DNA of 61,008 nucleotides, the filler included, from Acidimicrobiia bacterium (GTDB lineage: Bacteria; Actinomycetota; Acidimicrobiia; Spongiisociales; JAHEDJ01): the NCBI GenBank assembly GCA_029210695.1. It is 4 parts of 4 records of this genome, joined end to end, with 100 filler letters (N's around TTAATTAATTAA, not from the genome) between each part and the next. Parts side by side here need not be neighbours in the genome. Positions count along the whole stretch, not along the records: positions 31,550 to 46,698 come from JARGFH010000076.1; 3 more parts are not named here. One strand, given 5' to 3'. The notes beneath the pieces were generated by a model that saw only the letters and a list, made by a program, of their open reading frames with translations, did not search any database and was not told the origin of the DNA. This document shows positions 31,550 to 46,220 of this stretch, in pieces. The position numbers were made by a program, and so were the translations under genes. The number at the start of each line of letters is the position of its first letter. Within the stretch, counting starts at the first letter, position 1.

Positions 31550-31621
31550 AGTAACCATCAGATTGGCAGAGCCCTCCTAATCAACCGGGAACCCCTACAC
31601 CCCGCTCAATTCCGAAGCGCC
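31550..31621 (-). mobile_element. ISL3-family IS end, immediately upstream of tadB
   Basis: Identical to 3-74. Confidence 0.8.
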
Positions 31622-31633
31622 CCTTTCAGGAGG

Positions 31634-32503: not shown

Positions 32504-33420
32504 CGGCGCTGGCGGTGATGGTCGCAGGGGCGGGGATCGGGCTCGGTGTCTTCCTGGCCGCAAGGGCCGTGTTCCCTCGACCGGTGCCACTCCAGCGGGC
32601 ACTCGCGGACCTGAGTCGACCGCGCCCAACCCTCGTCGAGTCGGACACGACGTCGACGACGACGACGACGATAAGCAACCGGATCGGTCGGGCAACAATC
32701 AGCTTGTTCGAGGCAACCGGACTGGTCGACCTCGGAGGGCTCCGCCAGCGTCTCCGAGCTCTCGGCAAGCCAGTCGAAATACATGCCTACGAGAAGATGC
32801 TCGGCGGACTCGCAGGATTGTTCCTCCCCCTCGGCTTCGCCGCCATCCTCGCCGCCGGGGGAGTGACGGTGCCGGTCGGGTGGGTGGCTGTTCTGGCGGT
32901 CGGGTTGTGCATCGGTGGCTTCGTGTGGCCGGATCTCGGGTTGTCGGAGCGGATAGAACGTCGCCGCCGCGACTTCCGCCACTCCCTGTCCGCCTACCTG
33001 GACCTCGTCACCATCATCCTGGCCGGCGGGGGCGGACTCGAGACCGCCCTTCAAACTTCCGCCGACCTCGGAGATGGGTGGGCGTTCACCGAAATCCGAT
33101 CGGCCTTGCGCAAAGCTCGCCTCACCAACCACACCCCGTGGGAGGTCTTCGACCAACTCGGACAGGAGTTGGGTGTCGACGAACTGCGCGAACTCGCCGC
33201 ATCGGCTCACCTGGCTGGCGATCAGGGTGCCCGCATCCGGGCGTCTCTCGCCGCCAAAGCAGATTCCATGCGCAACAGTCAGACCGCCGCCATCGAAGCC
33301 CAAGCCGAAGCCGCCACCGAAAAGATGCTCCTGCCCGTCGTCACCCTGGTCGTCGGCATGATCCTCTTCATCGGCTTTGGCGTCGTCCAAGCGATCTCCA
33401 CGCCGGGGACAGTCCCATGA
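32500..33420 (+). CDS. tadC: Tad pilus platform protein TadC-like (T2SSF domain)
   Basis: LSAYLDLVTIILAGGGGLETAL...GARIRASLAAKADSMR...ATEKMLLP. Confidence 0.88.
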   Translation: MTALAVMVAGAGIGLGVFLAARAVFPRPVPLQRALADLSRPRPTLVESDTTSTTTTTISNRIGRATISLFEATGLVDLGGLRQRLRALGKPVEIHAYEKMLGGLAGLFLPLGFAAILAAGGVTVPVGWVAVLAVGLCIGGFVWPDLGLSERIERRRRDFRHSLSAYLDLVTIILAGGGGLETALQTSADLGDGWAFTEIRSALRKARLTNHTPWEVFDQLGQELGVDELRELAASAHLAGDQGARIRASLAAKADSMRNSQTAAIEAQAEAATEKMLLPVVTLVVGMILFIGFGVVQAISTPGTVP

Positions 33421-33486
33421 CACCTACGAAACGAATCCAGCACCCTCGGCGAGACCAAACGACCCGCTACGGAAGGAGCGACTGAT

Positions 33487-33699
33487 ATGACCGCCTACAT
33501 CGACTACACCCGCCTGCTGATCGAAGTTGGCCTCAGCAGACTGGGAGTCCAGGTCCGCGATGAGAGAGGAGCGATGTCAACCGAGGCAGCCGTCCTCACC
33601 GGAGTCCTCGTCACGATCGCCGTCGCCGCCGGAATCATCTTGATCGCCAAGATGCGATCCAACGCCGAAGCGATCCCCGACAACGTACCCACCCCCTGA
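33487..33699 (+). CDS. Flp-type major pilin
   Basis: RDERG|AMSTE prepilin motif followed by a hydrophobic helix; 70 aa; RBS AAGGAG. Confidence 0.8.
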   Translation: MTAYIDYTRLLIEVGLSRLGVQVRDERGAMSTEAAVLTGVLVTIAVAAGIILIAKMRSNAEAIPDNVPTP

Positions 33700-33719
33700 A
33701 AGGCAGTGGGGGAGAGGTC

Positions 33720-34166
33720 GTGAGAGCGCCGAACAGACGAGGAAAGGCCGAGGACGGCCTCACGTCCACCGAGCTGGCTGTGATCATGCCGGTGCTGATC
33801 GCGCTCGTCCTGGTCCCATTCCAGATCGCGTTGTGGTGGCACGCCGATCAGATCGCCGATGCCGCCGCCCGAGAGGCAGTCGACGCCGCCCAGGTCGTCA
33901 CCGCCACTGAAGAGGACGGGGTTCGAGCCGCCGAATGGTTTCTCGACGCCGCCGGCAACATCACCGAACCGCAGGTGACCGTCACCCGCACCACCGTCAC
34001 CGTCAGCGTCGAGGTGACCGGCAGGGCGCCCCGACTCCTCCCCGGATTCGACTGGCAGGTCACCGCCCGAGCAGCTGGTCCGATCGAACGCTTCATACCG
34101 GAAGACGAGCGGTTCGGGATTACTGAAGGGTTGGTCGGGTTGGACTCAGGGACTGGTGGTCGGTGA
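33720..34166 (+). CDS. TadE-like pseudopilin (last ~17 aa probably supplied by the inserted element)
   Basis: EDG|LTSTELAVIMP, AAAREAVDAA, GPIERF. Confidence 0.85.
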   Translation: MRAPNRRGKAEDGLTSTELAVIMPVLIALVLVPFQIALWWHADQIADAAAREAVDAAQVVTATEEDGVRAAEWFLDAAGNITEPQVTVTRTTVTVSVEVTGRAPRLLPGFDWQVTARAAGPIERFIPEDERFGITEGLVGLDSGTGGR

Positions 34167-34171
34167 TGCGG

Positions 34172-34597
34172 TTATGCGGACCCTTGGGTTGGAGAACTGG
34201 GGGCGGGTGGAATGCGCAGGAGCCGAATGATGCGCTCCAAGGTTTGAGGGTCGCCTTTCCAATGGGTCTCAAGTCGCTGATGCCCGGTGGCTTTGATCAG
34301 ATGTCGGATCACCCAGGCGACGATCAGGGCATCGTCGAGGTAGCCGAGGACAGGAATGAAGTCCGGTACGAGATCGAACGGCATCGCCAGGTAGGCGACG
34401 ACGAGGGCGGGGGCGATCTTGGCCCGGCGCGGCACAAGCGGGTCCCTCATGATGTCGCGGAGCAAGGCGAGGCAAAGGGGAATGAGGCGCGCCAGTTCGA
34501 TCAGCGCCGTGCGACTCCGTCGAGCCGTCAACGCGGCTGCGGTGACGGCGACGATGAGGACGCCGGCGGTGAGACCGATCCATCCCCACCAGCTCAT
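34172..34597 (-). CDS. YkvA/DUF1232 family membrane protein
   Basis: DPLVPRRAK...YLAMPFDLVPDFIPVLGYLDD. Confidence 0.9.
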   Translation of the reverse strand: MSWWGWIGLTAGVLIVAVTAAALTARRSRTALIELARLIPLCLALLRDIMRDPLVPRRAKIAPALVVAYLAMPFDLVPDFIPVLGYLDDALIVAWVIRHLIKATGHQRLETHWKGDPQTLERIIRLLRIPPAPSSPTQGSA

Positions 34598-34606
34598 GAG
34601 CCGATC

Positions 34607-36256
34607 CTAAACATGGGCCCTGAGTCCGGGAGGGTCGAGAACGCGGGCGTATCGCTCCGCGGTCTTGACGGTGACACCGAACAGGTCACTGATCCGTCGG
34701 ACGTCGCCGCTGGTGGCCAAAGCTTCGTCGAGGATCCGGTCTTGGCGGAGGGCGTCGGGGGAGAAGCCGAGGGCGAGGCCAACCCACCGGCTGCCGACCG
34801 GTCCAGTGCCGGTGGCCGTTCTGTGGTGGATGAACAGGTGCGGGTTAGCAGTATGGGGCCACCGGTCGTTGCGATAGTCGAGCCAGACGGCGAGTCGTGT
34901 CTTGACCGGCTCGGCGAGCGGAATCGTGCGGTCGGGGAGATGGAGTCGACCGTCACGAAGGTCGGTGAGCGCCAAGTCACGGATCTCTTTGGATCGGATG
35001 CCGTGGAAGGCGATGAGGCCGGCAAGCACCGCCCGACCGGGATCGGTAGAAGTGAAGGCTTCCCGTATCTGGTCGGGGTCCAGGGGGAGGGGCTGGTGCC
35101 GGTCGATGGTCCCTACATCGATGCGGCTGGTCGGGTTGGTGAAGATCGTCTTGTGGGCTTTGAGGGTGCCGAAGATGGATCGGAGGGCGTACCCGAGGGT
35201 GGCTCGAGGGTTTCCGCCGGCCGGGAGAGCCACTTCGACGTCTTGGCGGCTGATCTCTCGGAGGGACTGATGACCCTGGTAGGCCCATGCTTTGAGGGTG
35301 GGCAGCGCCCAGGCCAGACGGGTCTTGATGGTGATCGGCGACCGTGGCCGGCTACGGGGCGGTTGGGTGCTCCCGTTGGAGAGGACATCGAACCAGAGTT
35401 GGAGCTCGCTGACCATGGCTTCGGGAAGGTCGGCAACCTGTCGAGCGAACCAGGCTTCGATGGCGGGGGTGCGGTCGTCGTGGAGCATCTCCGCCGCGGC
35501 GAACAGATCGAGGCATTGGCTGACGGGCAGGCCGCGGGCGGTGAGGGCGGCCACGTCGGTGGCTCTGATCGTGTCAGCGGCAGGGTGGAGTCTGCACAGG
35601 GTTCTGATGCCGGCGAGGACTCGTTTGAGGGTGACCTTGCTCCATCCAAAACGAACGGCGCGGTCTCGGGAGATGCTCTCGAGGATTTCCAGCCTCGGAT
35701 CGGGCTGGTCGAACAGGTCGAGCTGCTGACGGAGGTGATGGGGGGTGGTGGTCGAAGACGAGGAGGTTGGTGGGCTGGCTGGTGCTGCTGGGGCGCGGTT
35801 GCGGGCTTGGCGGTGCATGTCGGCGAAGAAGAGCTGCTGTCCGCACCGGTTGGCGGCGACCGGGTCGAGTGGCTGTTGGGGTCGCCGTTGGTTGGCGGCC
35901 TGCCGCCAGCAGAGACGGCACAGACGGCGGGAGTCGACAGGACGCCAGCGGCTGCAGATCGTGCATGGACCCGGGATGGGATGCGACTTCCGCCAGTTTC
36001 GACAGCCGTAGCACACGCCCTGTTGCTGTCGGGCAACCCCCCAGGCGTGACAGTCCTCACACGATCCGGGCTGTTGCGGTGCGTACTGGTGGCAGCGGGC
36101 GCACAACCCGGCCGAGTAATAGTCGTCGACCGATCCGCACCGGCGGCAGGGAGGCTCTGGGAACGACCCTCCGGGCTGACAGGTGAAACAGAACTGGTGG
36201 CGTTTGGTGGCGACCGGCTTCACACCACATCCGGTGCATGCTCTAGGTCGGGTCAA
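34607..36256 (-). CDS. Cys-rich (8 CxxC) protein with degenerate tyrosine-recombinase C-terminal domain
   Basis: CTGC/CFTC/CRRC/CARC/CEDC/CYGC/CTIC/CRLC; HGIRSKEI, RTIPL, ALRQDR, LFGV, AERY. Confidence 0.75.
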   Translation of the reverse strand: MTRPRACTGCGVKPVATKRHQFCFTCQPGGSFPEPPCRRCGSVDDYYSAGLCARCHQYAPQQPGSCEDCHAWGVARQQQGVCYGCRNWRKSHPIPGPCTICSRWRPVDSRRLCRLCWRQAANQRRPQQPLDPVAANRCGQQLFFADMHRQARNRAPAAPASPPTSSSSTTTPHHLRQQLDLFDQPDPRLEILESISRDRAVRFGWSKVTLKRVLAGIRTLCRLHPAADTIRATDVAALTARGLPVSQCLDLFAAAEMLHDDRTPAIEAWFARQVADLPEAMVSELQLWFDVLSNGSTQPPRSRPRSPITIKTRLAWALPTLKAWAYQGHQSLREISRQDVEVALPAGGNPRATLGYALRSIFGTLKAHKTIFTNPTSRIDVGTIDRHQPLPLDPDQIREAFTSTDPGRAVLAGLIAFHGIRSKEIRDLALTDLRDGRLHLPDRTIPLAEPVKTRLAVWLDYRNDRWPHTANPHLFIHHRTATGTGPVGSRWVGLALGFSPDALRQDRILDEALATSGDVRRISDLFGVTVKTAERYARVLDPPGLRAHV

Positions 36257-36564
36257 GCCGGTGGCTTGGTCCGGTTCCGGCCGGGTCGGATCGGCGTTGT
36301 CCCCTGTTCGGCGGTGGCTGCCGTGGTGGGTTTGGTGGCTTCGACCTTGTCCGGTTCGGGGATCAGCAGATCATCCGGACCGCAGTCGAGCACATGGCAG
36401 AACACGTCGAGGTCGTCAAGGCGGATGGTGGTGGGTGTTCCCGTCCACAGCGCCGACATCTTCCCTGCGCTGATCTCCAGACCGGCATCTGCTAGTCGGC
36501 GTCGCATCTCGGTGGACTTCCAGATGCCCTCCTCGGCGGCCTTCATTCGCAGATTCCAACGCAT
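36253..36564 (-). CDS. Cro/Xre-type HTH protein
   Basis: MRWNLRMKAA...IRLDDLDVFCHVLDCGPDDLL. Confidence 0.85.
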   Translation of the reverse strand: MRWNLRMKAAEEGIWKSTEMRRRLADAGLEISAGKMSALWTGTPTTIRLDDLDVFCHVLDCGPDDLLIPEPDKVEATKPTTAATAEQGTTPIRPGRNRTKPPA

Positions 36565-36568
36565 GATC

Positions 36569-37663
36569 TCACCTCGTTTCCTCGCCAAACCGGGCAGCTA
36601 CCCGCTGGTTGGCAGCAGCCCAGGCTTGTTCGATGTGGTTGTCGTGAACATGGATGTATCGGGTGGTGGTGGACAGCCACTCGTGACCCAACAGCTCTTG
36701 GATGGCCTTGAGGTCCATGCCTCGCTCATAGAGAGACGAGGCGCAGAAATGACGGAGCCCGTGGGGTGTCAGCCGTCCACTCCAAGCGGGCAACCAACGT
36801 CCCACCGCATGAGCCAGTCCGGCTCGCAGCGCCTCGGGTCCTATCCGTCCGCATCGTGTCGTCAGCCGGTCCCGACGTTCGCTCGGGAGGAGAGGAGCGT
36901 CGGGGTCGTCCCAGTCGTCACCGAACTGGTGGCGCACATCGGTGAGCCACCACACCAGCAACTCATCAACCGAGTTGATAGCTGGGACCAGCCGGGTCTT
37001 CGGGCCCCGACCGTTGCTGCCCTTCCCGAATCGGACATGCAGTTTGCCGTGCTCGCCGAGGTCGGGACGCCAATCGCGGAGGTCGAGCATCACCGTTTCG
37101 CCGATCCGAAGCCCGCAGCGACGCCACAACGATGCAGCCAGATAGTCACGGGCGGCGGGCAGGAACTTCCTGGCGTCGGGCAGAACCTCCCGCCAGGCGA
37201 CGAAAAGCCCCTCCACCTCGTCGCTCGAGGGCGGGACTCGCGGCGAACCCCCGTAGTCGGCTTTGGCCGGCCGGTTGAACTCGTCGATCGGCTGGACCAC
37301 CACTGTGCCGGTGAGGGCGTGGATGTCGCCCTGGTAGCGGCCGACAACAAAGTCAAAGAAGCGGCCCAGAGTCCAGGCCTTTGCCTGCACCGTCGACTTG
37401 GCTTGCCCGCGGTCTCGCCGCAGCCACACCAGATACCGGTCCGCATCCTCAGGCGTGGCCGTCCACACCGGTCGGCCGAGGAAGCGAATGAACTCGAAAA
37501 CGATCGTGCGATCCACCGAAACGTGACGATCGGTCACACCCGCACCTGCGGCCGCCAGCGAGAACTGGTCGACAAGCTCCTGCTCGAAATCCTCAAGCTC
37601 CTGCGGCGACCGCAAGCTACGAGCCGTGCCCAACGACCGAACCACCGCCAACGACATCGCCAC
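36569..37663 (-). CDS. Tyrosine recombinase/integrase with intact catalytic residues
   Basis: GLRIGE, GKG..KTR, PHGLRH, LLGH, TTRY. Confidence 0.95.
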   Translation of the reverse strand: MAMSLAVVRSLGTARSLRSPQELEDFEQELVDQFSLAAAGAGVTDRHVSVDRTIVFEFIRFLGRPVWTATPEDADRYLVWLRRDRGQAKSTVQAKAWTLGRFFDFVVGRYQGDIHALTGTVVVQPIDEFNRPAKADYGGSPRVPPSSDEVEGLFVAWREVLPDARKFLPAARDYLAASLWRRCGLRIGETVMLDLRDWRPDLGEHGKLHVRFGKGSNGRGPKTRLVPAINSVDELLVWWLTDVRHQFGDDWDDPDAPLLPSERRDRLTTRCGRIGPEALRAGLAHAVGRWLPAWSGRLTPHGLRHFCASSLYERGMDLKAIQELLGHEWLSTTTRYIHVHDNHIEQAWAAANQRVAARFGEETR

Positions 37664-37842
37664 CTCACTTCACCCAGACCGACACACCGTCATGAATCCC
37701 GAAAAATAGCCGGGAATCCCGAAGGACTGTCGGATTTTCTCACGAGACGAAGGGTGGGCGACGGGCCTGTGAGTTGCCGCTTCCAGGGGGGAGACATGAG
37801 ATGAGAACTCAAAGCACTTCCTACAAATGCCGGAGCCAGCCC

Positions 37843-38232
37843 ATGAATGAGCGCGGAGCGGTCTCCACTTTCCTGGCAGTCATAGCTCTCGCCCTCCTGA
37901 TGGCTGCAGGGCTCGCCATCGACGGTGGCCGCAAGGTCAACGCCCTCAGAGAGGCAAGCCAATTGGCCGACAACGCTGCCCGGGCGGGCGCCCAAGGCGT
38001 CGACCTCGACACCCTTCGCACAACCGGCGACCTGACCCTCCAACCCGCCGATGCAGCCGATCGAGTCGACCAATACCTGACATCCCTGGGGCACACCGCA
38101 ACTGAGATCTCCGTGGTCGGCGACACCATCACCGTCACCGTCGAGCTCACCGTCGATCCCGTCCTCCTTCCCACCGGAGCGATCACCGTTACCGCTACGG
38201 AGACCGCAGCCGCCATCACCCAGGAGCCATGA
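37843..38232 (+). CDS. TadG/TadE-like pseudopilin
   Basis: ERG|AVSTF, GLAIDGG, ADNAARAGAQ. Confidence 0.85.
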   Translation: MNERGAVSTFLAVIALALLMAAGLAIDGGRKVNALREASQLADNAARAGAQGVDLDTLRTTGDLTLQPADAADRVDQYLTSLGHTATEISVVGDTITVTVELTVDPVLLPTGAITVTATETAAAITQEP

Positions 38233-41200
38233 TGCGACACCTCAACAACATGATCCGCGGCGTCGGAGCCCTCATCATCGTTGTCGCGTTCATCATTGGA
38301 GTTCCCACCGGTTTGGTCGCATATGTGGGATGGCCACTGCCCACCAGCCTCCCAACCCCCGACCAGATCCAACTCGCTTTCCGGAGCGGGATTGACCCGC
38401 AACTCCTCATCAACGCCTTGGCCGTGATTGTCTGGATCGTATGGGCCCAACTCGTCGCGACCCTCGCCACCGAGGTCGTCGCGGCTGTCCGAGGCAGAAC
38501 CGCCCGCCGCCTACCCGTCCTACCAGGACTGCAGCCGGCTGTCGCTCAGCTCGTCGCTGCCATCACGCTCGCCGCCGCCACTCTCGGTCCGCTCCGCGCC
38601 GTCCCAGCCACGGCGACTCCACTTCCAGCCGAATTCACTCTGGCGTCAAGCTATCCGGCCGTGGACCTGGGTAAAGAGACATCGAGGCCTGGATGGGCCG
38701 AGTCCCCCCAGCCGCAAAAGGCCGAATCCCACCGACCCACATACCAGGTGATGCGCCACGACACGCTATGGAGCATCGCCGAGACCACCCTCGGAGACGG
38801 TCGACGATGGACCGAGATCCGGGCACTCAATGAAGGACGGGCCATGCCCGACGGCCACAGCTTCGCAGAGACCACAAATGATCTCACCCCCGGCTGGCTG
38901 CTCGTCCTACCGGACGACGCAAGCACTCCCAACGAAGACGATGCGAAAGCGGCCGCAAGCGTGGTCACCGTGGCACCAGGAGGCAACTTCTGGACGATTG
39001 CCGAGGCCACCCTCACAACCGCGTGGGGGCGTCCACCCACCGAGTCCGAAACATCCGAGTATTGGCGGCCCCTCGTCGACACCAACCGAGAACGGCTGGT
39101 GCCACCGTACGACCCCGACCTCATCTACCCGGACCAACGATTCGAACTGCCCCCCATCCCCACCGACTCCCAGGCCGACTCAGGCGAGCCAACGGTGTTG
39201 GATCAGCATCAGGAGCAGGGAGTCGCCGAGGCCACCGTCGAAGCGGGTGACAGCTTCTGGAGCATCGCTGAGACGGCCCTTTCTGACGCATGGGACCGAA
39301 CCCCCACCACCACAGAAACCACCCGCTACTGGAACACCCTCGTCGATGTCAACCGGGACCGGCTTGCGCCACCTCACGACCCGAATCTCATCCACCCCGG
39401 CCAGAGATTCGGGCTGCCGGCCATCCCCAACGACCCCCACAACCCCGCCGAACCCGACACCGGGCTCGAAACCCCCGCCCCGCCCGAAACCGCACCTTCA
39501 CCTCCAGACAAGCCCGACACCGCCCCGACCACCCTTCCGCCCGACCTCCCAGCTGCAACAACGCTGCCCAACCCGAACGCCAACACGACAACGCCGACCG
39601 ACCCCACCGATAGCCACGAGCCGCCTGAGCCAATCACCCAGCCTGATGGAACGGACGCTGCCGACGACCTAGACGACGGGAATCTCGCCGGCGAGCTGCT
39701 CCCCGTTGCCAGCACCCTCGCAGGCCTCGGAATCCTCGCAGCCGGGATCGTCGCCCTCCTCCGCCGGCTCCGAACGGCACAGCTGAGGCACCGCCGACCC
39801 GGCACCATCCCCACACCCCCGCCCCCGGACGCCGCCACAGCCGAGGCAATGATCCGAAGTGCCGCCGCCCCCACCGCCACCGAGTTCCTCGACCTCGCCT
39901 TACGCGCCATGGCCCGAGACGTCATCGCCTCCCACATCCCGCCACCACAAGTCGTCGGTGTCCACCTCACCCCCGACATACTGCGAGTGCTCTTGTGGAC
40001 CCCACACCAAGAACCACCCCCCGGCTGGCAGATCGACGACGAAGGACGCAGCTGGACCATTCCCACCGACACCGACATCGACAGGCTCCGCGACAAAGCC
40101 GCCGGTGTGCCAGCGCCCTACCCGGCGCTGGTCACCGTCGGACACGGAGACCACACCCAGCTCCTCCTCGACCTCGAATACCTCGGAGCCACCCAGATAA
40201 CCGGCAACCCCGACGACGTCACAGCCACCTGCTACACGATGGCCACCGAGCTCGCCACCAGCCCCATCGCCGACGAACTCCAGATCATCTGCATCGGATT
40301 CGGGACCGACCTCAACCACCTCGAACGCATACATGCAGTAGACGACCTGAGCGAGATCCTGCCCACGCTCGCAGCCAAAGCTGCAGCGGCCGCTCGGGTC
40401 GCATCCCCATCGCCTCTGCACGGTCGGATCTCGTCGGTAGGCGATACCTGGGACCCGATCATCATCTTCCACCCCACAGCCGACGCCCCCGACGAGGCGA
40501 ACAGAGTTCTCATCACCGCCCACGCCGGTCGAGGTGTCGCCGCAGTCGTCGGCTACCCGACCGGGGACCGGTGGCGACTCCACGTCGAAGACGACACCGT
40601 GCGAGTCGATCCACTCGGCCAGACGTACGCCCGCCGCAACCTCACCCTGACCGAACAAACCGCGGTGGCCGACCTCGTCACCGCCGCCAAAGACCTCGAC
40701 GGCCTACCACCCGAACTCACCACCGACCCGCTCCTGCTCAACGAAGCCGTCGATGACGTTCTCACGTCGACAGACGAAACCATCGAACCGACATTGTTCG
40801 CAGAGGAAGAGACCGCCGGCGAAGAGCTCCCGGCCCAAGTCCCCGAAATGAAGGTGCTCGGCACCCTCAGAGTCGAAGGGATCGACGGGCGCTTCGCGCT
40901 CCGCAGATGCACCGAACTGGTCGCCTACCTCACCTTCCACCGCGGTGGCGTCGAAGCCGACACCCTGATGGAAGCCCTGTGGCCCGAACAACGACCCGAC
41001 TACCAACGGCTCAACCGACACACCTACCGTGCCCGCACCACCCTCGGCCTCGGCCCCGACGGTGAGCCCTACCTTCCCTACGTCGCCGACGGGATCTATC
41101 GGATCAGCCCCCACCTCCAGAGCGACATCGAGAAGTTCACTGGACACATACGCCAAGCCGACCGAACGTCAGGCGCCGACCAAGCGCACCAGTTACGGGC

Positions 41201-41594
41201 CGCGCTCGAACTAGTCGAAGGAACGCCATTCACCGGAGCCGGCAACGCCTACATCTGGGCACACACCGACGGGATCATCACCCACACCATCGTCGCCATC
41301 GACAACGCCGCGCACCGCCTCGCCCAACACGCCCTCGCCAACGACGACCCTGCCGAGGCGACCTGGGCCGCCAGAAGAGGGCTCGTGGCCACCGGAGCGT
41401 GCGAGCACTGTTACCGCAACCTCATGCGAGCAGCAGCCGCCGAGGGCAACCAGGTCGCCCTTGAGGCTGTCTATTCGGAGCTGCTGGCAGTCGTCGACGC
41501 AGACGAAGGCCCTGACGCATCCAGCTTCCTAGACTCCGAAACGATCGAGCTCTACGAACGCGCAACCAGGCGGGGACGCCGGCAGGTCGGCTGA
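38229..41594 (+). CDS. Membrane protein with three LysM domains and C-terminal wHTH-BTAD (SARP-like) domain
   Basis: N-terminal TMs; DTLWSIAE, NFWTIAE, DSFWSIAE LysM motifs; further TM; VLGTLRV...ELVAYL...EALWP; LRAALELVEGTPF...YRNLMRA. Confidence 0.85.
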   Translation: MMRHLNNMIRGVGALIIVVAFIIGVPTGLVAYVGWPLPTSLPTPDQIQLAFRSGIDPQLLINALAVIVWIVWAQLVATLATEVVAAVRGRTARRLPVLPGLQPAVAQLVAAITLAAATLGPLRAVPATATPLPAEFTLASSYPAVDLGKETSRPGWAESPQPQKAESHRPTYQVMRHDTLWSIAETTLGDGRRWTEIRALNEGRAMPDGHSFAETTNDLTPGWLLVLPDDASTPNEDDAKAAASVVTVAPGGNFWTIAEATLTTAWGRPPTESETSEYWRPLVDTNRERLVPPYDPDLIYPDQRFELPPIPTDSQADSGEPTVLDQHQEQGVAEATVEAGDSFWSIAETALSDAWDRTPTTTETTRYWNTLVDVNRDRLAPPHDPNLIHPGQRFGLPAIPNDPHNPAEPDTGLETPAPPETAPSPPDKPDTAPTTLPPDLPAATTLPNPNANTTTPTDPTDSHEPPEPITQPDGTDAADDLDDGNLAGELLPVASTLAGLGILAAGIVALLRRLRTAQLRHRRPGTIPTPPPPDAATAEAMIRSAAAPTATEFLDLALRAMARDVIASHIPPPQVVGVHLTPDILRVLLWTPHQEPPPGWQIDDEGRSWTIPTDTDIDRLRDKAAGVPAPYPALVTVGHGDHTQLLLDLEYLGATQITGNPDDVTATCYTMATELATSPIADELQIICIGFGTDLNHLERIHAVDDLSEILPTLAAKAAAAARVASPSPLHGRISSVGDTWDPIIIFHPTADAPDEANRVLITAHAGRGVAAVVGYPTGDRWRLHVEDDTVRVDPLGQTYARRNLTLTEQTAVADLVTAAKDLDGLPPELTTDPLLLNEAVDDVLTSTDETIEPTLFAEEETAGEELPAQVPEMKVLGTLRVEGIDGRFALRRCTELVAYLTFHRGGVEADTLMEALWPEQRPDYQRLNRHTYRARTTLGLGPDGEPYLPYVADGIYRISPHLQSDIEKFTGHIRQADRTSGADQAHQLRAALELVEGTPFTGAGNAYIWAHTDGIITHTIVAIDNAAHRLAQHALANDDPAEATWAARRGLVATGACEHCYRNLMRAAAAEGNQVALEAVYSELLAVVDADEGPDASSFLDSETIELYERATRRGRRQVG

Positions 41595-44282: not shown

Positions 44283-46220
44283 TCAACTGACGCCTCGTCC
44301 ACCGTGACAGATCTCGCGGCGCGACGTTGAGTCGTAGACGTCGAGGTAGGTCCGGACGACGGCCTCCTCTCGGTCAATGCGACTAGCCAGATACCCGATT
44401 GCGCGGGAGCGATCGCCCGAGTCGGCGATAGTCTTGACGACTCGCAGGGCAGCCCGGATAACCCTGGGCACGGCTTCGGGCTCTTCGACGTTGTGTTGGC
44501 AGATGATCTGATCGATCAGGTGGTGTTCTAGAGGAGCGGCGTTGGCGATGGCTTCTTCAAGCGAGTGTCTTCCGCCGTTTGCGAGCAGGTCTGCAGGGTC
44601 GTGTCCCTCCGGCAGCCTGGCGACGTGGAGCCGGATGCCCTGGTGGGCGCGGCCAAGTTCCGCTGCACGCTCCACCGCCTGAAGACCAGCACGATCCCCA
44701 TCAAACGCAAGGGTGACGTTGCTTGTGATCCTCGCGAGTGTCTTCAGGTGCTCCTCGGTCAGCGCGGTTCCCCCGGTGGCGACAGCGTTGGTGAGCCCGG
44801 CTTGGTGGGCGGTGATGGTGTCGGTGTAGCCCTCGACTAGGACCGCCTTGCCGGCGCCGAGGATCGGTTTGTGGGCGAGGTGGAGGCCGTAGAGCAAGGA
44901 TCGTTTCTGGTAGAGCGCGGTCTCGGGGGTGTTGAGGTACTTGGGTCCGTCCCCTGACAGAAGCCGACCGGCGAAACCGCTGGGCGTACCGTGCTCGTCG
45001 TGGATGGGGAAGATCACTCGGCTGCGCATCCGGTCGTAGAGCCGTCCGTCTCGCGATCGGCCGGCAACGCCGGCCTCAAGGAGCAGATCCTCGCTGAAGC
45101 CTTCTTGGCGGAGCGCCAACGTCAATGCCTCCCAAGCACCAGGTGCGTAGCCCAGCTGCCAGCGATCGAGCGCCTCGTTGTCGATGCCCCGACCTCGCAG
45201 GTACTCGAGTGCCTCCGCTCCCTCCGGTTTTCGAAGTTGGCCTTGGTAGAACCCGGTTGCGGCGCTGACCACCGTCTCGAGATCCGACCTTGCTCTCGGC
45301 GCCGGCGACGGCGCCGGGGTCTCCCGATCTCGGGCCTCGATACGGGGACTGGCTGTGATGTGCTCGCGTTCGAGTCGGCGTTCCTGCTCGAGCTGGGTGA
45401 GGACCTGGCGGGCACAGCCGATCACCCGATTGGCAGTGGCAGACACCTTGGTGAGGTCGCCTCCGCTCCATGACGCCACATATGGGAGGCTGTAGCCGGC
45501 GCTGTCGATCCCCAGGGCTGCGCACACCATGTACGCGACCGACTCGGCCTCCACCTCGACGATCCCCCGACACGACGGCCTGCCGTCCGAGGTCGGTTCG
45601 TGCAACCGGACATGCGCCAGTTCGTGCACTGCAGTCTTGAACCGTTGCGCCCCGGGAAGACTGGCACGCACCACGACATCTCGGTGTTGCCAGTCGGTGA
45701 TGCCGTTGGCTTCGCCGAGTCGGTCGAGGTCGGCGACCTGCAGCTCGAACCCGGCGTCGGTGATGAGCTCGCTGACCTGATCCCAGTGGGAGGGAAGATC
45801 CCCTTCAACCAGAGCCACCGGCACTTCGGGGAGGGGTTCGCCGTCGGTTTGGGCGATGTCGAAGACGTGCACGACTCGGAACCCCACAACTCGCCGTTCC
45901 TCGTCTTCACCATTCTCGGGTGTGACCTTGCGGATGAGGGGGGCGAGGATCTGCAGTCCCCGTTCACCGCGTCGCACGTGACGGTCGAGTTCCTGCCAAG
46001 CCCGATAGCCGGCCACCCGGCTCGGGGTGAACCCGCGGGCCAACGACTGTGCCCAGATCAGTCGGGTGTTGGCGAACGAGTAGTCGTGGAAGCGAGCGGC
46101 GACGGCCAGGGCACGCTGCCAGTCCTCGGAGGTGACGAGCTCTTGGAGCGAGTCCTGCAGCTGTTCGTGGAGTCGCTCAACGGCGTCGTTTCGGTTGGTG
46201 GTCTTTTCTGCTGATTCCAC
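44283..46220 (-). CDS. ArdC-like ssDNA-binding/zincin domains fused to a DnaG primase core
   Basis: FHDYSFAN...GYRAW...VRRGERG, VFDIAQT, HELAH, EAESVAY; then LGYAP, DRMRSRVIFPI, KYLNTPET, VEGYTD, FDGDRAG, DPAD. Confidence 0.88.
   Translation of the reverse strand: MESAEKTTNRNDAVERLHEQLQDSLQELVTSEDWQRALAVAARFHDYSFANTRLIWAQSLARGFTPSRVAGYRAWQELDRHVRRGERGLQILAPLIRKVTPENGEDEERRVVGFRVVHVFDIAQTDGEPLPEVPVALVEGDLPSHWDQVSELITDAGFELQVADLDRLGEANGITDWQHRDVVVRASLPGAQRFKTAVHELAHVRLHEPTSDGRPSCRGIVEVEAESVAYMVCAALGIDSAGYSLPYVASWSGGDLTKVSATANRVIGCARQVLTQLEQERRLEREHITASPRIEARDRETPAPSPAPRARSDLETVVSAATGFYQGQLRKPEGAEALEYLRGRGIDNEALDRWQLGYAPGAWEALTLALRQEGFSEDLLLEAGVAGRSRDGRLYDRMRSRVIFPIHDEHGTPSGFAGRLLSGDGPKYLNTPETALYQKRSLLYGLHLAHKPILGAGKAVLVEGYTDTITAHQAGLTNAVATGGTALTEEHLKTLARITSNVTLAFDGDRAGLQAVERAAELGRAHQGIRLHVARLPEGHDPADLLANGGRHSLEEAIANAAPLEHHLIDQIICQHNVEEPEAVPRVIRAALRVVKTIADSGDRSRAIGYLASRIDREEAVVRTYLDVYDSTSRREICHGGRGVS

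Follow-up and report, generated by a model that had tools for sequence, protein, structure and literature searches.

A probable integrative element with a conserved three-gene core inserted in tad operons of Actinomycetota

The stretch of DNA analysed here (the window, 61,008 nucleotides at its full length, filler included) comes from the draft genome of an Acidimicrobiia bacterium (GCA_029210695.1, labelled G000, 181 contigs) and consists of several contigs joined by runs of N. On one of these contigs (JARGFH010000076.1, labelled C155), which begins at position 31550 of the window, four genes on the minus strand lie close together, with a plus-strand tad gene on either side. Three of them encode a tyrosine recombinase (INT), a small protein with a Cro/C1-type helix-turn-helix domain (HTH), and a 549-aa protein (BIG) that combines a cysteine-rich N-terminal module with a degenerate recombinase fold; the fourth is a cargo gene. 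We conclude with high confidence that these genes belong to a mobile element with the conserved three-gene core INT-HTH-BIG. An earlier note on this DNA had proposed such an element with three co-oriented core genes, and a second copy in the genome, strict synteny in relatives and shared boundaries bear this out. The whole proposal, i.e., a compact integrative element of a widespread, sporadic Actinomycetota family whose proteins have the roles set out in the Discussion, is in our judgment probable, though well short of certain.

Two copies of the element and related empty loci

A second copy of the element was found on another contig of the same genome (C96), within a paralogous tad locus. 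When the two copies were compared column by column, 50/50 positions were identical in each block from ~34135 to 37335 (~3.2 kb), and 45-49/50 in each block from ~37335 to ~37735. An unalignable patch of ~60 bp follows, after which the last ~40 bases up to ~37825 are conserved again. The flanks of the two tad loci (C155 and C96) are just 74-84% identical. In three further paralogous loci of this genome (C148, C105, and C46), the genes tadE1, tadE2, and tad3 follow each other uninterrupted and the element is absent. It is also absent from the relatives G007 and G013, which have the tad genes.

Alignment to the empty paralogues placed the insertion point at the overlap of the tadE1 stop and the tadE2 start. 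The tadE1 gene reads 67 nt into the element and stops there, and its own last few codons are lost. In C96, tadE2 follows on the far side of the element. The window copy lacks this tadE2-like gene of ~450 bp, which is present in C96 (~44970-45420), C148, C105, and C46; here, the start region of the third tad gene is joined directly to the element (37826-37845). The loss of tadE2 has the appearance of an adjacent deletion that extended to a second, core-like site at its 3' end. The junctions contain a 7-bp quasi-repeat, TTCATAC just outside the BIG-distal end of the element (End B) and TTCCTAC just inside the int-proximal end (End A). Apart from this quasi-repeat, no target duplication was seen at the junctions of the window and C96 copies aligned to the empty paralogues. 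Based on the second copy, the empty paralogues, and the relatives, the limits of the element, placed at 34113..37810 in the earlier note, were corrected to ~34100 and ~37825.

Distribution and mobility of the family

The family was surveyed in one-genome-per-species contigs from 185,579 species genomes. Among 8000 candidates scored, 706 BIG homologues were found at E ≤ 0.001, and at least 593 loci lie in the species-genome contigs. Most of these loci are from Actinomycetota, including Streptomyces, Amycolatopsis, Nocardia, Frankia, and many uncultured lineages, and a few are from metagenome-assembled genomes labelled Chloroflexota, Acidobacteriota, or Dormiibacterota. In an even sample across the phylum, 5/400 other genomes were positive at E ≤ 1e-20, so the family is broad but sporadic.

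The 76 loci most similar to the query were kept for detailed comparison. Wherever the contig has room, INT, HTH, and BIG were found by tblastn in a fixed order on one strand; the synteny of the three proteins, a point on which the earlier proposal depended, is conserved in essentially every such locus. INT is 60-79% identical to that of the window, and BIG mostly 38-50% over full-length matches, with L079 as an outlier for both proteins (45% and 34%, respectively). Several genomes carry two copies.

Comparisons between loci point to movement of a unit with defined boundaries. Some ten contigs, 3.4-4.4 kb in length, span from 165-171 nt upstream of INT to shortly after BIG or a small cargo; multi-copy repeats usually assemble as stand-alone short contigs of this kind. 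The loci L023 and L026 are 94% identical inside the element and about 70% identical in the flanks. Similarly, the elements of L058 and L064 are 88% identical in largely unrelated flanks (one downstream stretch is 69% identical). L024 is a 5.3-kb contig equal to the element of L023, and L023 and L020 share a core that is 79% identical but differ in cargo. The hallmarks of an integrative element, namely common ends in differing flanks, empty related sites, and orientation-specific insertion, were all observed.

A stretch of 16.26 kb, comprising the element and its tad flanks, is 99.99% identical between L023 and L025, records titled Prauserella muralis and Amycolatopsis roodepoortensis. Such identity suggests either that the carrier element was transferred very recently or that a record is mislabelled or contaminated.

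Ends of the element and repeated motifs

End B was scanned with a composite pattern over 57 loci. The consensus CTTCAGnAATyCnyGAACyC followed by ACGG is present in most of them, and the stand-alone contigs L013, L022, L030, and L066 terminate 9 nt past GAACyC. In the family alignment of End A, the terminus TGT is followed ~15 nt inward by G(A/G)GTTC, which is preceded by CCGT. Stand-alone contigs begin at this terminus, ~165 nt upstream of INT. Each end bears a GAACyCACGG-like arm, the two arms being in inverted orientation; in L022, they form a perfect 11-bp inverted repeat. With arms this short and imperfect, a 16-nt probe taken from End A to find terminal inverted repeats returned mostly matches at chance level. 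The target (the 3' end of tadE1) resembles the centre of the putative joined-end region.

A second motif, TCGGGATTCCyGA(A/C)G, is conserved in the family alignment ~60-70 nt upstream of the INT start, and its best forms are 6+1+6 palindromes. With up to 2 mismatches, it was matched at this distance in 27/57 loci, and more diverged versions are visible in the alignment. At End B, the palindromic motif abuts the arm (34110-34126), and this combination of arm and motif is also seen at End B in relatives. In a 13-mer search of positions 33001-39000 with up to 2 mismatches, matches were found only at 34114, 37690, and 37710.

The motifs quoted in the earlier note are present at the coordinates given there, and their interpretation as inverted end motifs holds in part. 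The motif at End B adjoins the arm, but the TCGGGATT motifs on the int side are internal, ~100-135 nt from the end. GAGAACT had been reported near both ends. The occurrence at 37803 is part of the End A arm, whereas the one at 34192 was rejected as an end motif; it lies inside the DUF1232 cargo gene, has no conserved counterpart in relatives, and is probably due to chance.

In both copies of the source genome, End A contains a G-rich run resembling a Shine-Dalgarno sequence, as well as an ATG (37800) whose frame is that of the downstream host gene, and the downstream host genes differ between the two copies. Host open reading frames (ORFs) also begin inside End A in L011 and L014. This ATG may serve to maintain translation of the downstream cistron, or its position may be due to chance.

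INT and HTH are conserved and intact

INT belongs to the tyrosine recombinase superfamily, as its Phage_integrase domain contains the R-K-HxxR-H/W-Y set. The full R-K-HxxR-H-Y set recognised earlier proved to be invariant in 33 relatives (R186, K214/K222, H301, R304, H327, and Y336). The best NCBIfam matches of INT are XerC and XerA, far under their cut-offs.

The start of HTH was inferred from relatives to be at MRWNL (36564), which gives a protein of ~105 aa. It consists of a conserved 72-residue domain, a variable linker, and a conserved basic tail (...RxRSxPPA) ending in PPA, with a mean identity of 75% in an alignment of 29 relatives. The HTH stop codon overlaps the BIG start. HTH could be a directionality factor, as proposed earlier, or equally an operon repressor.

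BIG joins a putative zinc module to a degenerate recombinase fold

BIG has no family match in Pfam, NCBIfam, or PHROGs. Its residues 1-~135 contain eight CxxC pairs, enough for four zinc sites, and the pairs are invariant or nearly so in 28 relatives. These pairs, as well as the strings ALRQDR and LFG in the C-terminal part, had been read correctly from the sequence in the earlier note. The zinc module alone (residues 1-140) was modelled by AlphaFold2 (AF2) with a predicted local distance difference test (pLDDT) score of 86. Compared with known zinc domains, it gave its best match to PHD-type fingers (VIA-align Z 3.1, root-mean-square deviation 3.5, 63 aligned residues), and no convincing structural relative was found (best Foldseek E 0.32, best Z 3.1). 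In a long form of BIG (730-785 aa; P0004, P0005, P0007, P0011, P0025, and others), the whole CxxC module is duplicated in tandem at the N-terminus.

Residues ~186-545 of BIG form a complete two-domain recombinase fold, with core-binding and catalytic domains (AF2 pLDDT 82). Foldseek matched this model to XerA (1.6e-7) and also to XerH, lambda Int, and Cre over ~290-350 columns, and the BIG profile matched XerA in the PDB (2.4e-8). The alignment to XerA showed that BIG lacks a complete catalytic set, as the lysine and both histidines are absent. The first catalytic arginine position holds an arginine in 18/28 aligned sequences. The HxxR motif is replaced by an xxDR-like motif, in which R504 is nearly invariant and R507 is invariant, and the last His/Trp position is occupied by an aliphatic residue. 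Y536 is invariant. A recent duplication of INT as the origin of BIG was ruled out, since hhalign of the two families gave a probability of 0.04.

A complex of INT and BIG is predicted

Prediction of the INT-BIG complex was run three times from purpose-built alignments, with three controls. The scores were 0.64, 0.65, and 0.64, whereas the best of the 3 controls reached 0.00. The mark of 0.64 was reached by 116/157 solved complexes and by 2/215 mismatched pairs. The runs had at least 64% of contacts in common, with partner pLDDT of at least 76. In the predicted interface, the C-terminal helix of INT (residues 344-361, with invariant W348, R354, and R358) lies in the catalytic-like domain of BIG (residues 394-450 and 507-534). 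Invariant residues make up 11/32 of the BIG interface compared to 69/549 of BIG overall, and include R507, E511, D518, R520, R521, and D524.

These models support binding of INT to BIG, and the heteromeric recombinase suggested in the earlier note gains in silico support from them. Docking of INT may also offer a non-catalytic reason for the conservation of the 'active-site' region of BIG.

Landing sites and cargo

We annotated 262 flanking ORFs from 46 loci with Pfam and combined the result with tblastn. The element lies in tad operons in 20/46 loci, at differing junctions (between tadE and tad3, tadB and tadC, or flp/tadE and tadC). In 10/46 loci, it lies in a conjugative type IV secretion backbone (Replic_Relax, VirD4/TraG coupling protein, VirB4-like TraG P-loop, PrgI, NlpC/P60), and in 3/46 beside ssb, dprA, parB, DUF4192, or Prim-Pol genes. 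The context of the remaining 13/46 is other or unknown. All tad matches in the 76 loci searched by tblastn are on the strand opposite to the element, and so are nearly all neighbouring conjugation genes.

The upstream host gene often enters End B by 55-69 nt before its stop, and the start of the host gene that follows is no more than a few tens of bases from End A. This identifies an intercistronic junction as the usual site. On the complete plasmid pNOCA01 of Nocardioides sp. JS614 (NC_008697.1), which is typed conjugative (MOBF and MPF_T), the trio is located at 24.4-27.6 kb, between two tad membrane-protein genes. The contig of the element (C155) bears an ArdC-N/DnaG-primase gene of a type typical of transmissible elements.

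The slot between BIG and End B is a small variable cargo region. The cargo seen there includes DUF1232, MerR with UPF0060, methyltransferases, DUF4037, a P-loop kinase, ArsR with a cation-efflux protein, an AbiE toxin-antitoxin, mercury genes, and a DtxR-like repressor with an exchanger.

Other mobile genes were found next to the trio. In L070 (987-5076), a TnsA-like gene, a gene for a Mu-type transposase C-terminus, and TniB directly adjoin the trio in a tad locus, and in L040 (180-932) a TnsA-like gene alone adjoins it. It seems that different kinds of mobile element accumulate in these operons.

Feature coordinates and genomic setting

The features of the element and its immediate neighbours are given in Table 1. 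The neighbouring genes were named TadE, Tad, and T2SSF by Pfam.

Table 1. Features of the element and adjoining host genes (positions in the window)
Feature	Position	Strand	Remarks
Whole mobile element	34100..37825	-	~3.73 kb; ends good to a few bases, from comparison of second copy, paralogues, and relatives
End B terminal arm (BIG-distal)	34100..34115		GAACyC-type motif, read as CGGTTC on the + strand at 34110-34115
Palindrome-like motif TCGGGATTaCTGA abutting the End B arm	34114..34126	+	Candidate operator or architectural site
DUF1232 (YkvA-like) membrane protein, cargo gene	34172..34597	-	Pfam PF06803, 1.3e-12
BIG, 549 aa	34607..36256	-	Eight CxxC pairs (1-~135) and degenerate recombinase fold (~186-545)
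HTH protein (Cro/C1-type, HTH_26)	36253..36564 (ORF 36253-36588)	-	Pfam 5.4e-13
INT, 364 aa, canonical simple (Xer-like) tyrosine recombinase	36569..37663	-	PF00589, 4.3e-20
Two TCGGGATTCCyGA-like motifs upstream of int	37690-37702 and 37710-37722	-	Probably promoter/operator region
Patch of ~60 bp	37723..37784		Unalignable between the two G000 copies, variable across the family
End A (int-proximal) segment	37785..37825		Inverted arm with GAACTC at 37805-37810; terminus ...ACA at 37823-37825
Host tadE-like gene	33720..34166	+	Last ~67 nt (new C-terminal tail and stop) from the element
Host Tad/TadG-like gene directly downstream	37774-38232 (feature table, 37843..38232)	+	

Downstream of the tad genes, the contig encodes a LysM protein (1121 aa; 38229-41594) and an ArdC-N/DnaG-primase/Toprim fusion (645 aa; 44283-46220). 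Relatives of the LysM protein bear BTAD and Trans_reg_C domains, and in other genomes these tad loci are consistently accompanied by this LysM/BTAD protein.

The source genome has five paralogous tad-like loci (C155, C96, C148, C105, and C46), which are 67-81% identical to each other, some of them partly assembled. Six genomes of the same genus were searched (1.4-2.9 Mb, 56-97% complete). The source genome, at 3.9 Mb, exceeds them by ~1 Mb, and the tad locus of the window was found in none of the six. The paralogous loci and the larger genome with a locus absent from congeners suggest that the source genome contains several related transmissible islands or plasmids.

At least 16 other contigs of the genome (C22, C44, C50, C52, C68, C103, C106-108, C122, C127, C150, C151, C153, C177, and C180) have, at their ends, a sequence 99-100% identical to the first ~72-77 bases of C155 (window 31550-31625). 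This shared sequence may mark where a high-copy repeat ends, or it may have arisen as an assembly or linker artefact.

Discussion

From the anatomy of the element and one structure prediction, we infer a circular form, the sites that each protein binds, the roles of BIG and HTH, and an effect on the host operon. INT would cut and join DNA at the core of the two inverted GAACyCACGG-like arms, one near each end. BIG would enter a mixed complex with INT by accepting the INT C-terminal helix, and would act as a non-cutting, or at most partly cutting, DNA-binding partner that maybe holds one end or captures the target. Its zinc module may select targets, as the earlier note had proposed. The palindromic TCGGGATTCCyGA motif, found both upstream of int and next to the far arm, would be bound by an HTH dimer, which would there repress the operon and/or shape the ends for excision. 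These roles of BIG and HTH are tentative, with a chance that falls slightly short of even. The element would exit as a circle and re-enter in one orientation at short sites resembling its own core, located at the 3' end or intercistronic junction of operon genes. As most of these sites belong to tad-like pilus operons and to conjugative type IV secretion or ssb regions of plasmids and of integrative and conjugative elements, the element would ride on transmissible DNA.

Several points weigh against this proposal. The crossover point is placed only approximately, and the junction 7-mers mismatch at 1 base in the window copy and at 2 bases in C96. In the putative joined form, the arms face each other ~23-26 bp apart, and textbook tyrosine-recombinase cores are narrower (6-8 bp). 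The 'empty sites' are paralogues or orthologues that are 70-80% identical to the occupied loci. The identity of the two copies in the source genome may stem from gene conversion between resident copies and not from a fresh jump, since both copies occupy the same relative site of paralogous loci and differ fully in the 60-bp patch. The surveyed loci are those most similar to the query and not a random sample, and 13/46 contexts have neither tad nor conjugation genes. As regards the proteins, BIG may still be active, given its invariant tyrosine and arginine, and the pass of the predicted complex may reflect no more than a likeness to recombinase tetramers of solved structure, where this helix docks likewise.

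The proposal can also be carried further. The element would then be a sixth kind of tyrosine-recombinase transposon, a one-orientation 'hitch-hiker' that homes into transfer-operon junctions of actinobacterial conjugative plasmids and integrative and conjugative elements (ICEs). INT alone would cut, the zinc-armed BIG would fill the 'silent' positions and capture the target, and one strand pair would be exchanged, with the rest done by replication. We regard this extension as possible but doubtful. If it were true, the spread of the element, and perhaps the on/off state of the host transfer machinery, would be coupled to conjugation.

An unlikely explanation, in our view, is that the host conjugative element has domesticated the insertion as a removable interrupter. 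Insertion would polarise or silence the tad or type IV secretion operon and excision would restore it, so that the element would serve as a regulatory switch comparable to developmentally excised elements or 'active lysogeny', and not be a selfish transposon. This would account for insertion at gene junctions or in last codons with reading frames left intact (TadE1 only trades its last codons for a new tail), for the strictly antisense orientation, for the same relative site in two paralogous loci, and for the Shine-Dalgarno-like run with its in-frame ATG in End A of both copies. However, the family occupies several tad junctions as well as unrelated contexts, its cargo is varied, and genomes may contain several copies. 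Moreover, most tad loci lack the element (3/5 in the source genome, and those of G007 and G013). Such behaviour fits a parasite that is also able to act as a switch. We likewise see hardly any room for the idea that the trio lacks autonomy, either as a decayed remnant or as no more than the integration module (Int, Xis-like HTH, and an accessory gene) belonging to a larger island, phage, or ICE. Int with a small HTH is indeed the usual integration/excision pair, and the element sits inside an apparent larger conjugative element. But the same two boundaries recur in many unrelated flanks and as stand-alone 3.4-kb contigs, the element interrupts operons of the larger element and is not located at its edge, and the three intact reading frames are conserved across loci assigned to several phyla.

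Membership in the Tn554 family, with INT as a TnpA-like, BIG as a TnpB-like, and HTH as a TnpC-like protein in another gene order, is very improbable. The protein sizes are similar (364, 549, and ~105 aa here; about 361, 630, and 125 aa in Tn554), and both systems combine a three-protein module with a site preference. The ends are imperfectly inverted in both, as the accessible text on Tn554 describes them (Idola et al. 2023, PMC10214605), and actinobacterial Tn554-related pairs have been described (Van Houdt et al. 2012, PMC3414803). The Van Houdt pairs and Tn554, as far as the available text goes, further resemble the element in their hosts, which include Actinobacteria, and in a long protein with an N-terminal extension of unknown fold. 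Against this, gene order differs, HTH has a Cro/C1 domain, and BIG lacks the RHRY set, which both TnpA and TnpB hold according to the available text (PMC10214605), so that only INT has the catalytic set here.

Sequence comparison with Tn554 was made against the Tn554-like pair of pNOCA01 only. This plasmid (L010, L099, and L101) carries the trio and, separately, a Tn554-like pair with an 801-aa recombinase. The pair is at 110-113 kb, apart from the trio at 24-28 kb. BIG matched its long recombinase with a BLASTP E value of 1.8, and the match of INT to the short partner covered the generic catalytic motif only (66 residues, 3e-6). Identity with the actinobacterial Tn554-like transposons of Van Houdt et al. 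was rejected on these grounds, the pNOCA01 pair being unrelated to the trio in sequence beyond this motif. Their supplement gives four recombinases for pNOCA01 (Famint 23, 30, 36, and 41; PMC3414803), one of which may be INT.

Five groups of prokaryotic tyrosine-recombinase transposons are distinguished in the available text of Idola et al. 2023 (PMC10214605), namely ICE/IME (IME, integrative and mobilizable element), SE, GInt, RIT, and Tn554. SEs are strand-biased circularizing integrative elements with IntA, Tfp, IntB, and Srap, GInts have GinA-D, and both are described there from Gamma- and Betaproteobacteria. Tfp of SE and GinC of GInt are recombinase-fold proteins without catalytic residues that are accompanied by a small auxiliary protein (PMC10214605), which makes SE and GInt the nearest analogues of the element as far as that text describes them. 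They share with it a multi-protein recombinase module encoded in one tightly coupled operon at one element end, a target-site preference, imperfect inverted ends, and a cargo region. The differences, on the same descriptions, are considerable. SE and GInt have two catalytic recombinases, whereas here there is one (INT) in the order int-HTH-BIG, which departs from the intA-tfp-intB-srap synteny of SE. BIG keeps the tyrosine and one or two arginines and bears a putative N-terminal zinc module with eight CxxC pairs, the small protein is a Cro/C1 HTH, and the hosts are Actinomycetota. The element is also shorter (3.4-6 kb, compared to a median of 15.7 kb for SE). BIG and HTH were set apart from Tfp/GinC and Srap/GinD by descriptions. 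In an NCBIfam scan that included the gamma-mobile-trio models, BIG and HTH had no match at E ≤ 0.01, and GmtY matched INT with only 18 bits against a cut-off of 340. SE and Tn554 form a circular intermediate and carry a 6-bp footprint copied from the previous site. At the junctions here, a 7-bp quasi-repeat was found, which may or may not correspond to such a footprint. The strand-biased copy-out proposed for SE is akin to the exchange of one strand pair in the hitch-hiker extension.

RIT elements resemble the present one in their three co-oriented, overlapping genes and terminal inverted repeats. However, all three RIT genes encode recombinases of 315-410 aa with a catalytic tyrosine, according to the available text (PMC10214605), whereas here the middle gene is HTH and BIG is degenerate. 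Gene order, catalytic sets, and sequence comparisons uphold the earlier statement that the layout fits neither RIT nor Tn554. The Int and Xis/HTH modules of integrative or mobilizable elements are similar in that a single active integrase works with a small DNA-binding helper, and in that they integrate in a specific orientation at sites like their own core. They differ in lacking the strictly conserved third recombinase-fold/zinc protein, and their targets are tRNA or other housekeeping genes, compared to operon junctions of transfer genes here. Tn7-like elements, which prefer transmissible replicons as landing sites, offer an analogy only, since they use a DDE transposase and not a tyrosine recombinase.

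No description of an int-HTH-zinc/pseudo-recombinase trio, or of insertion in tad operons, was found in the full-text literature, which mostly does not cover subscription journals, so one may exist. The available part of Smyshlyaev et al. 2021 mentions nothing like BIG (PMC8138268). The element is apparently undescribed. The 'distinct transposon class' of the earlier note agrees with a layout that has no match, but it overlooked SE and GInt as the closest analogues, of whose kind the element is a variant. The second copy in the genome, the antisense preference for tad and conjugation operons across the family, and the absence of one tadE-like gene beside the window copy likewise went unnoticed there. 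It is best filed among the multi-protein tyrosine-recombinase transposons, with its own protein set.

To the five recognised groups, the element would add an Actinomycetota family with a different set of proteins, which at no fewer than 593 loci among the species genomes is abundant enough to matter. As BIG is unannotated in Pfam, NCBIfam, and PHROGs, these elements are invisible to current annotation, and they probably cause contig breaks in assemblies. They carry small cargo, including metal-resistance-type and toxin-antitoxin genes, onto conjugative elements. They also provide a compact three-protein system for asking how a pseudo-recombinase partners an active one and how a recombinase picks operon junctions of transmissible DNA.

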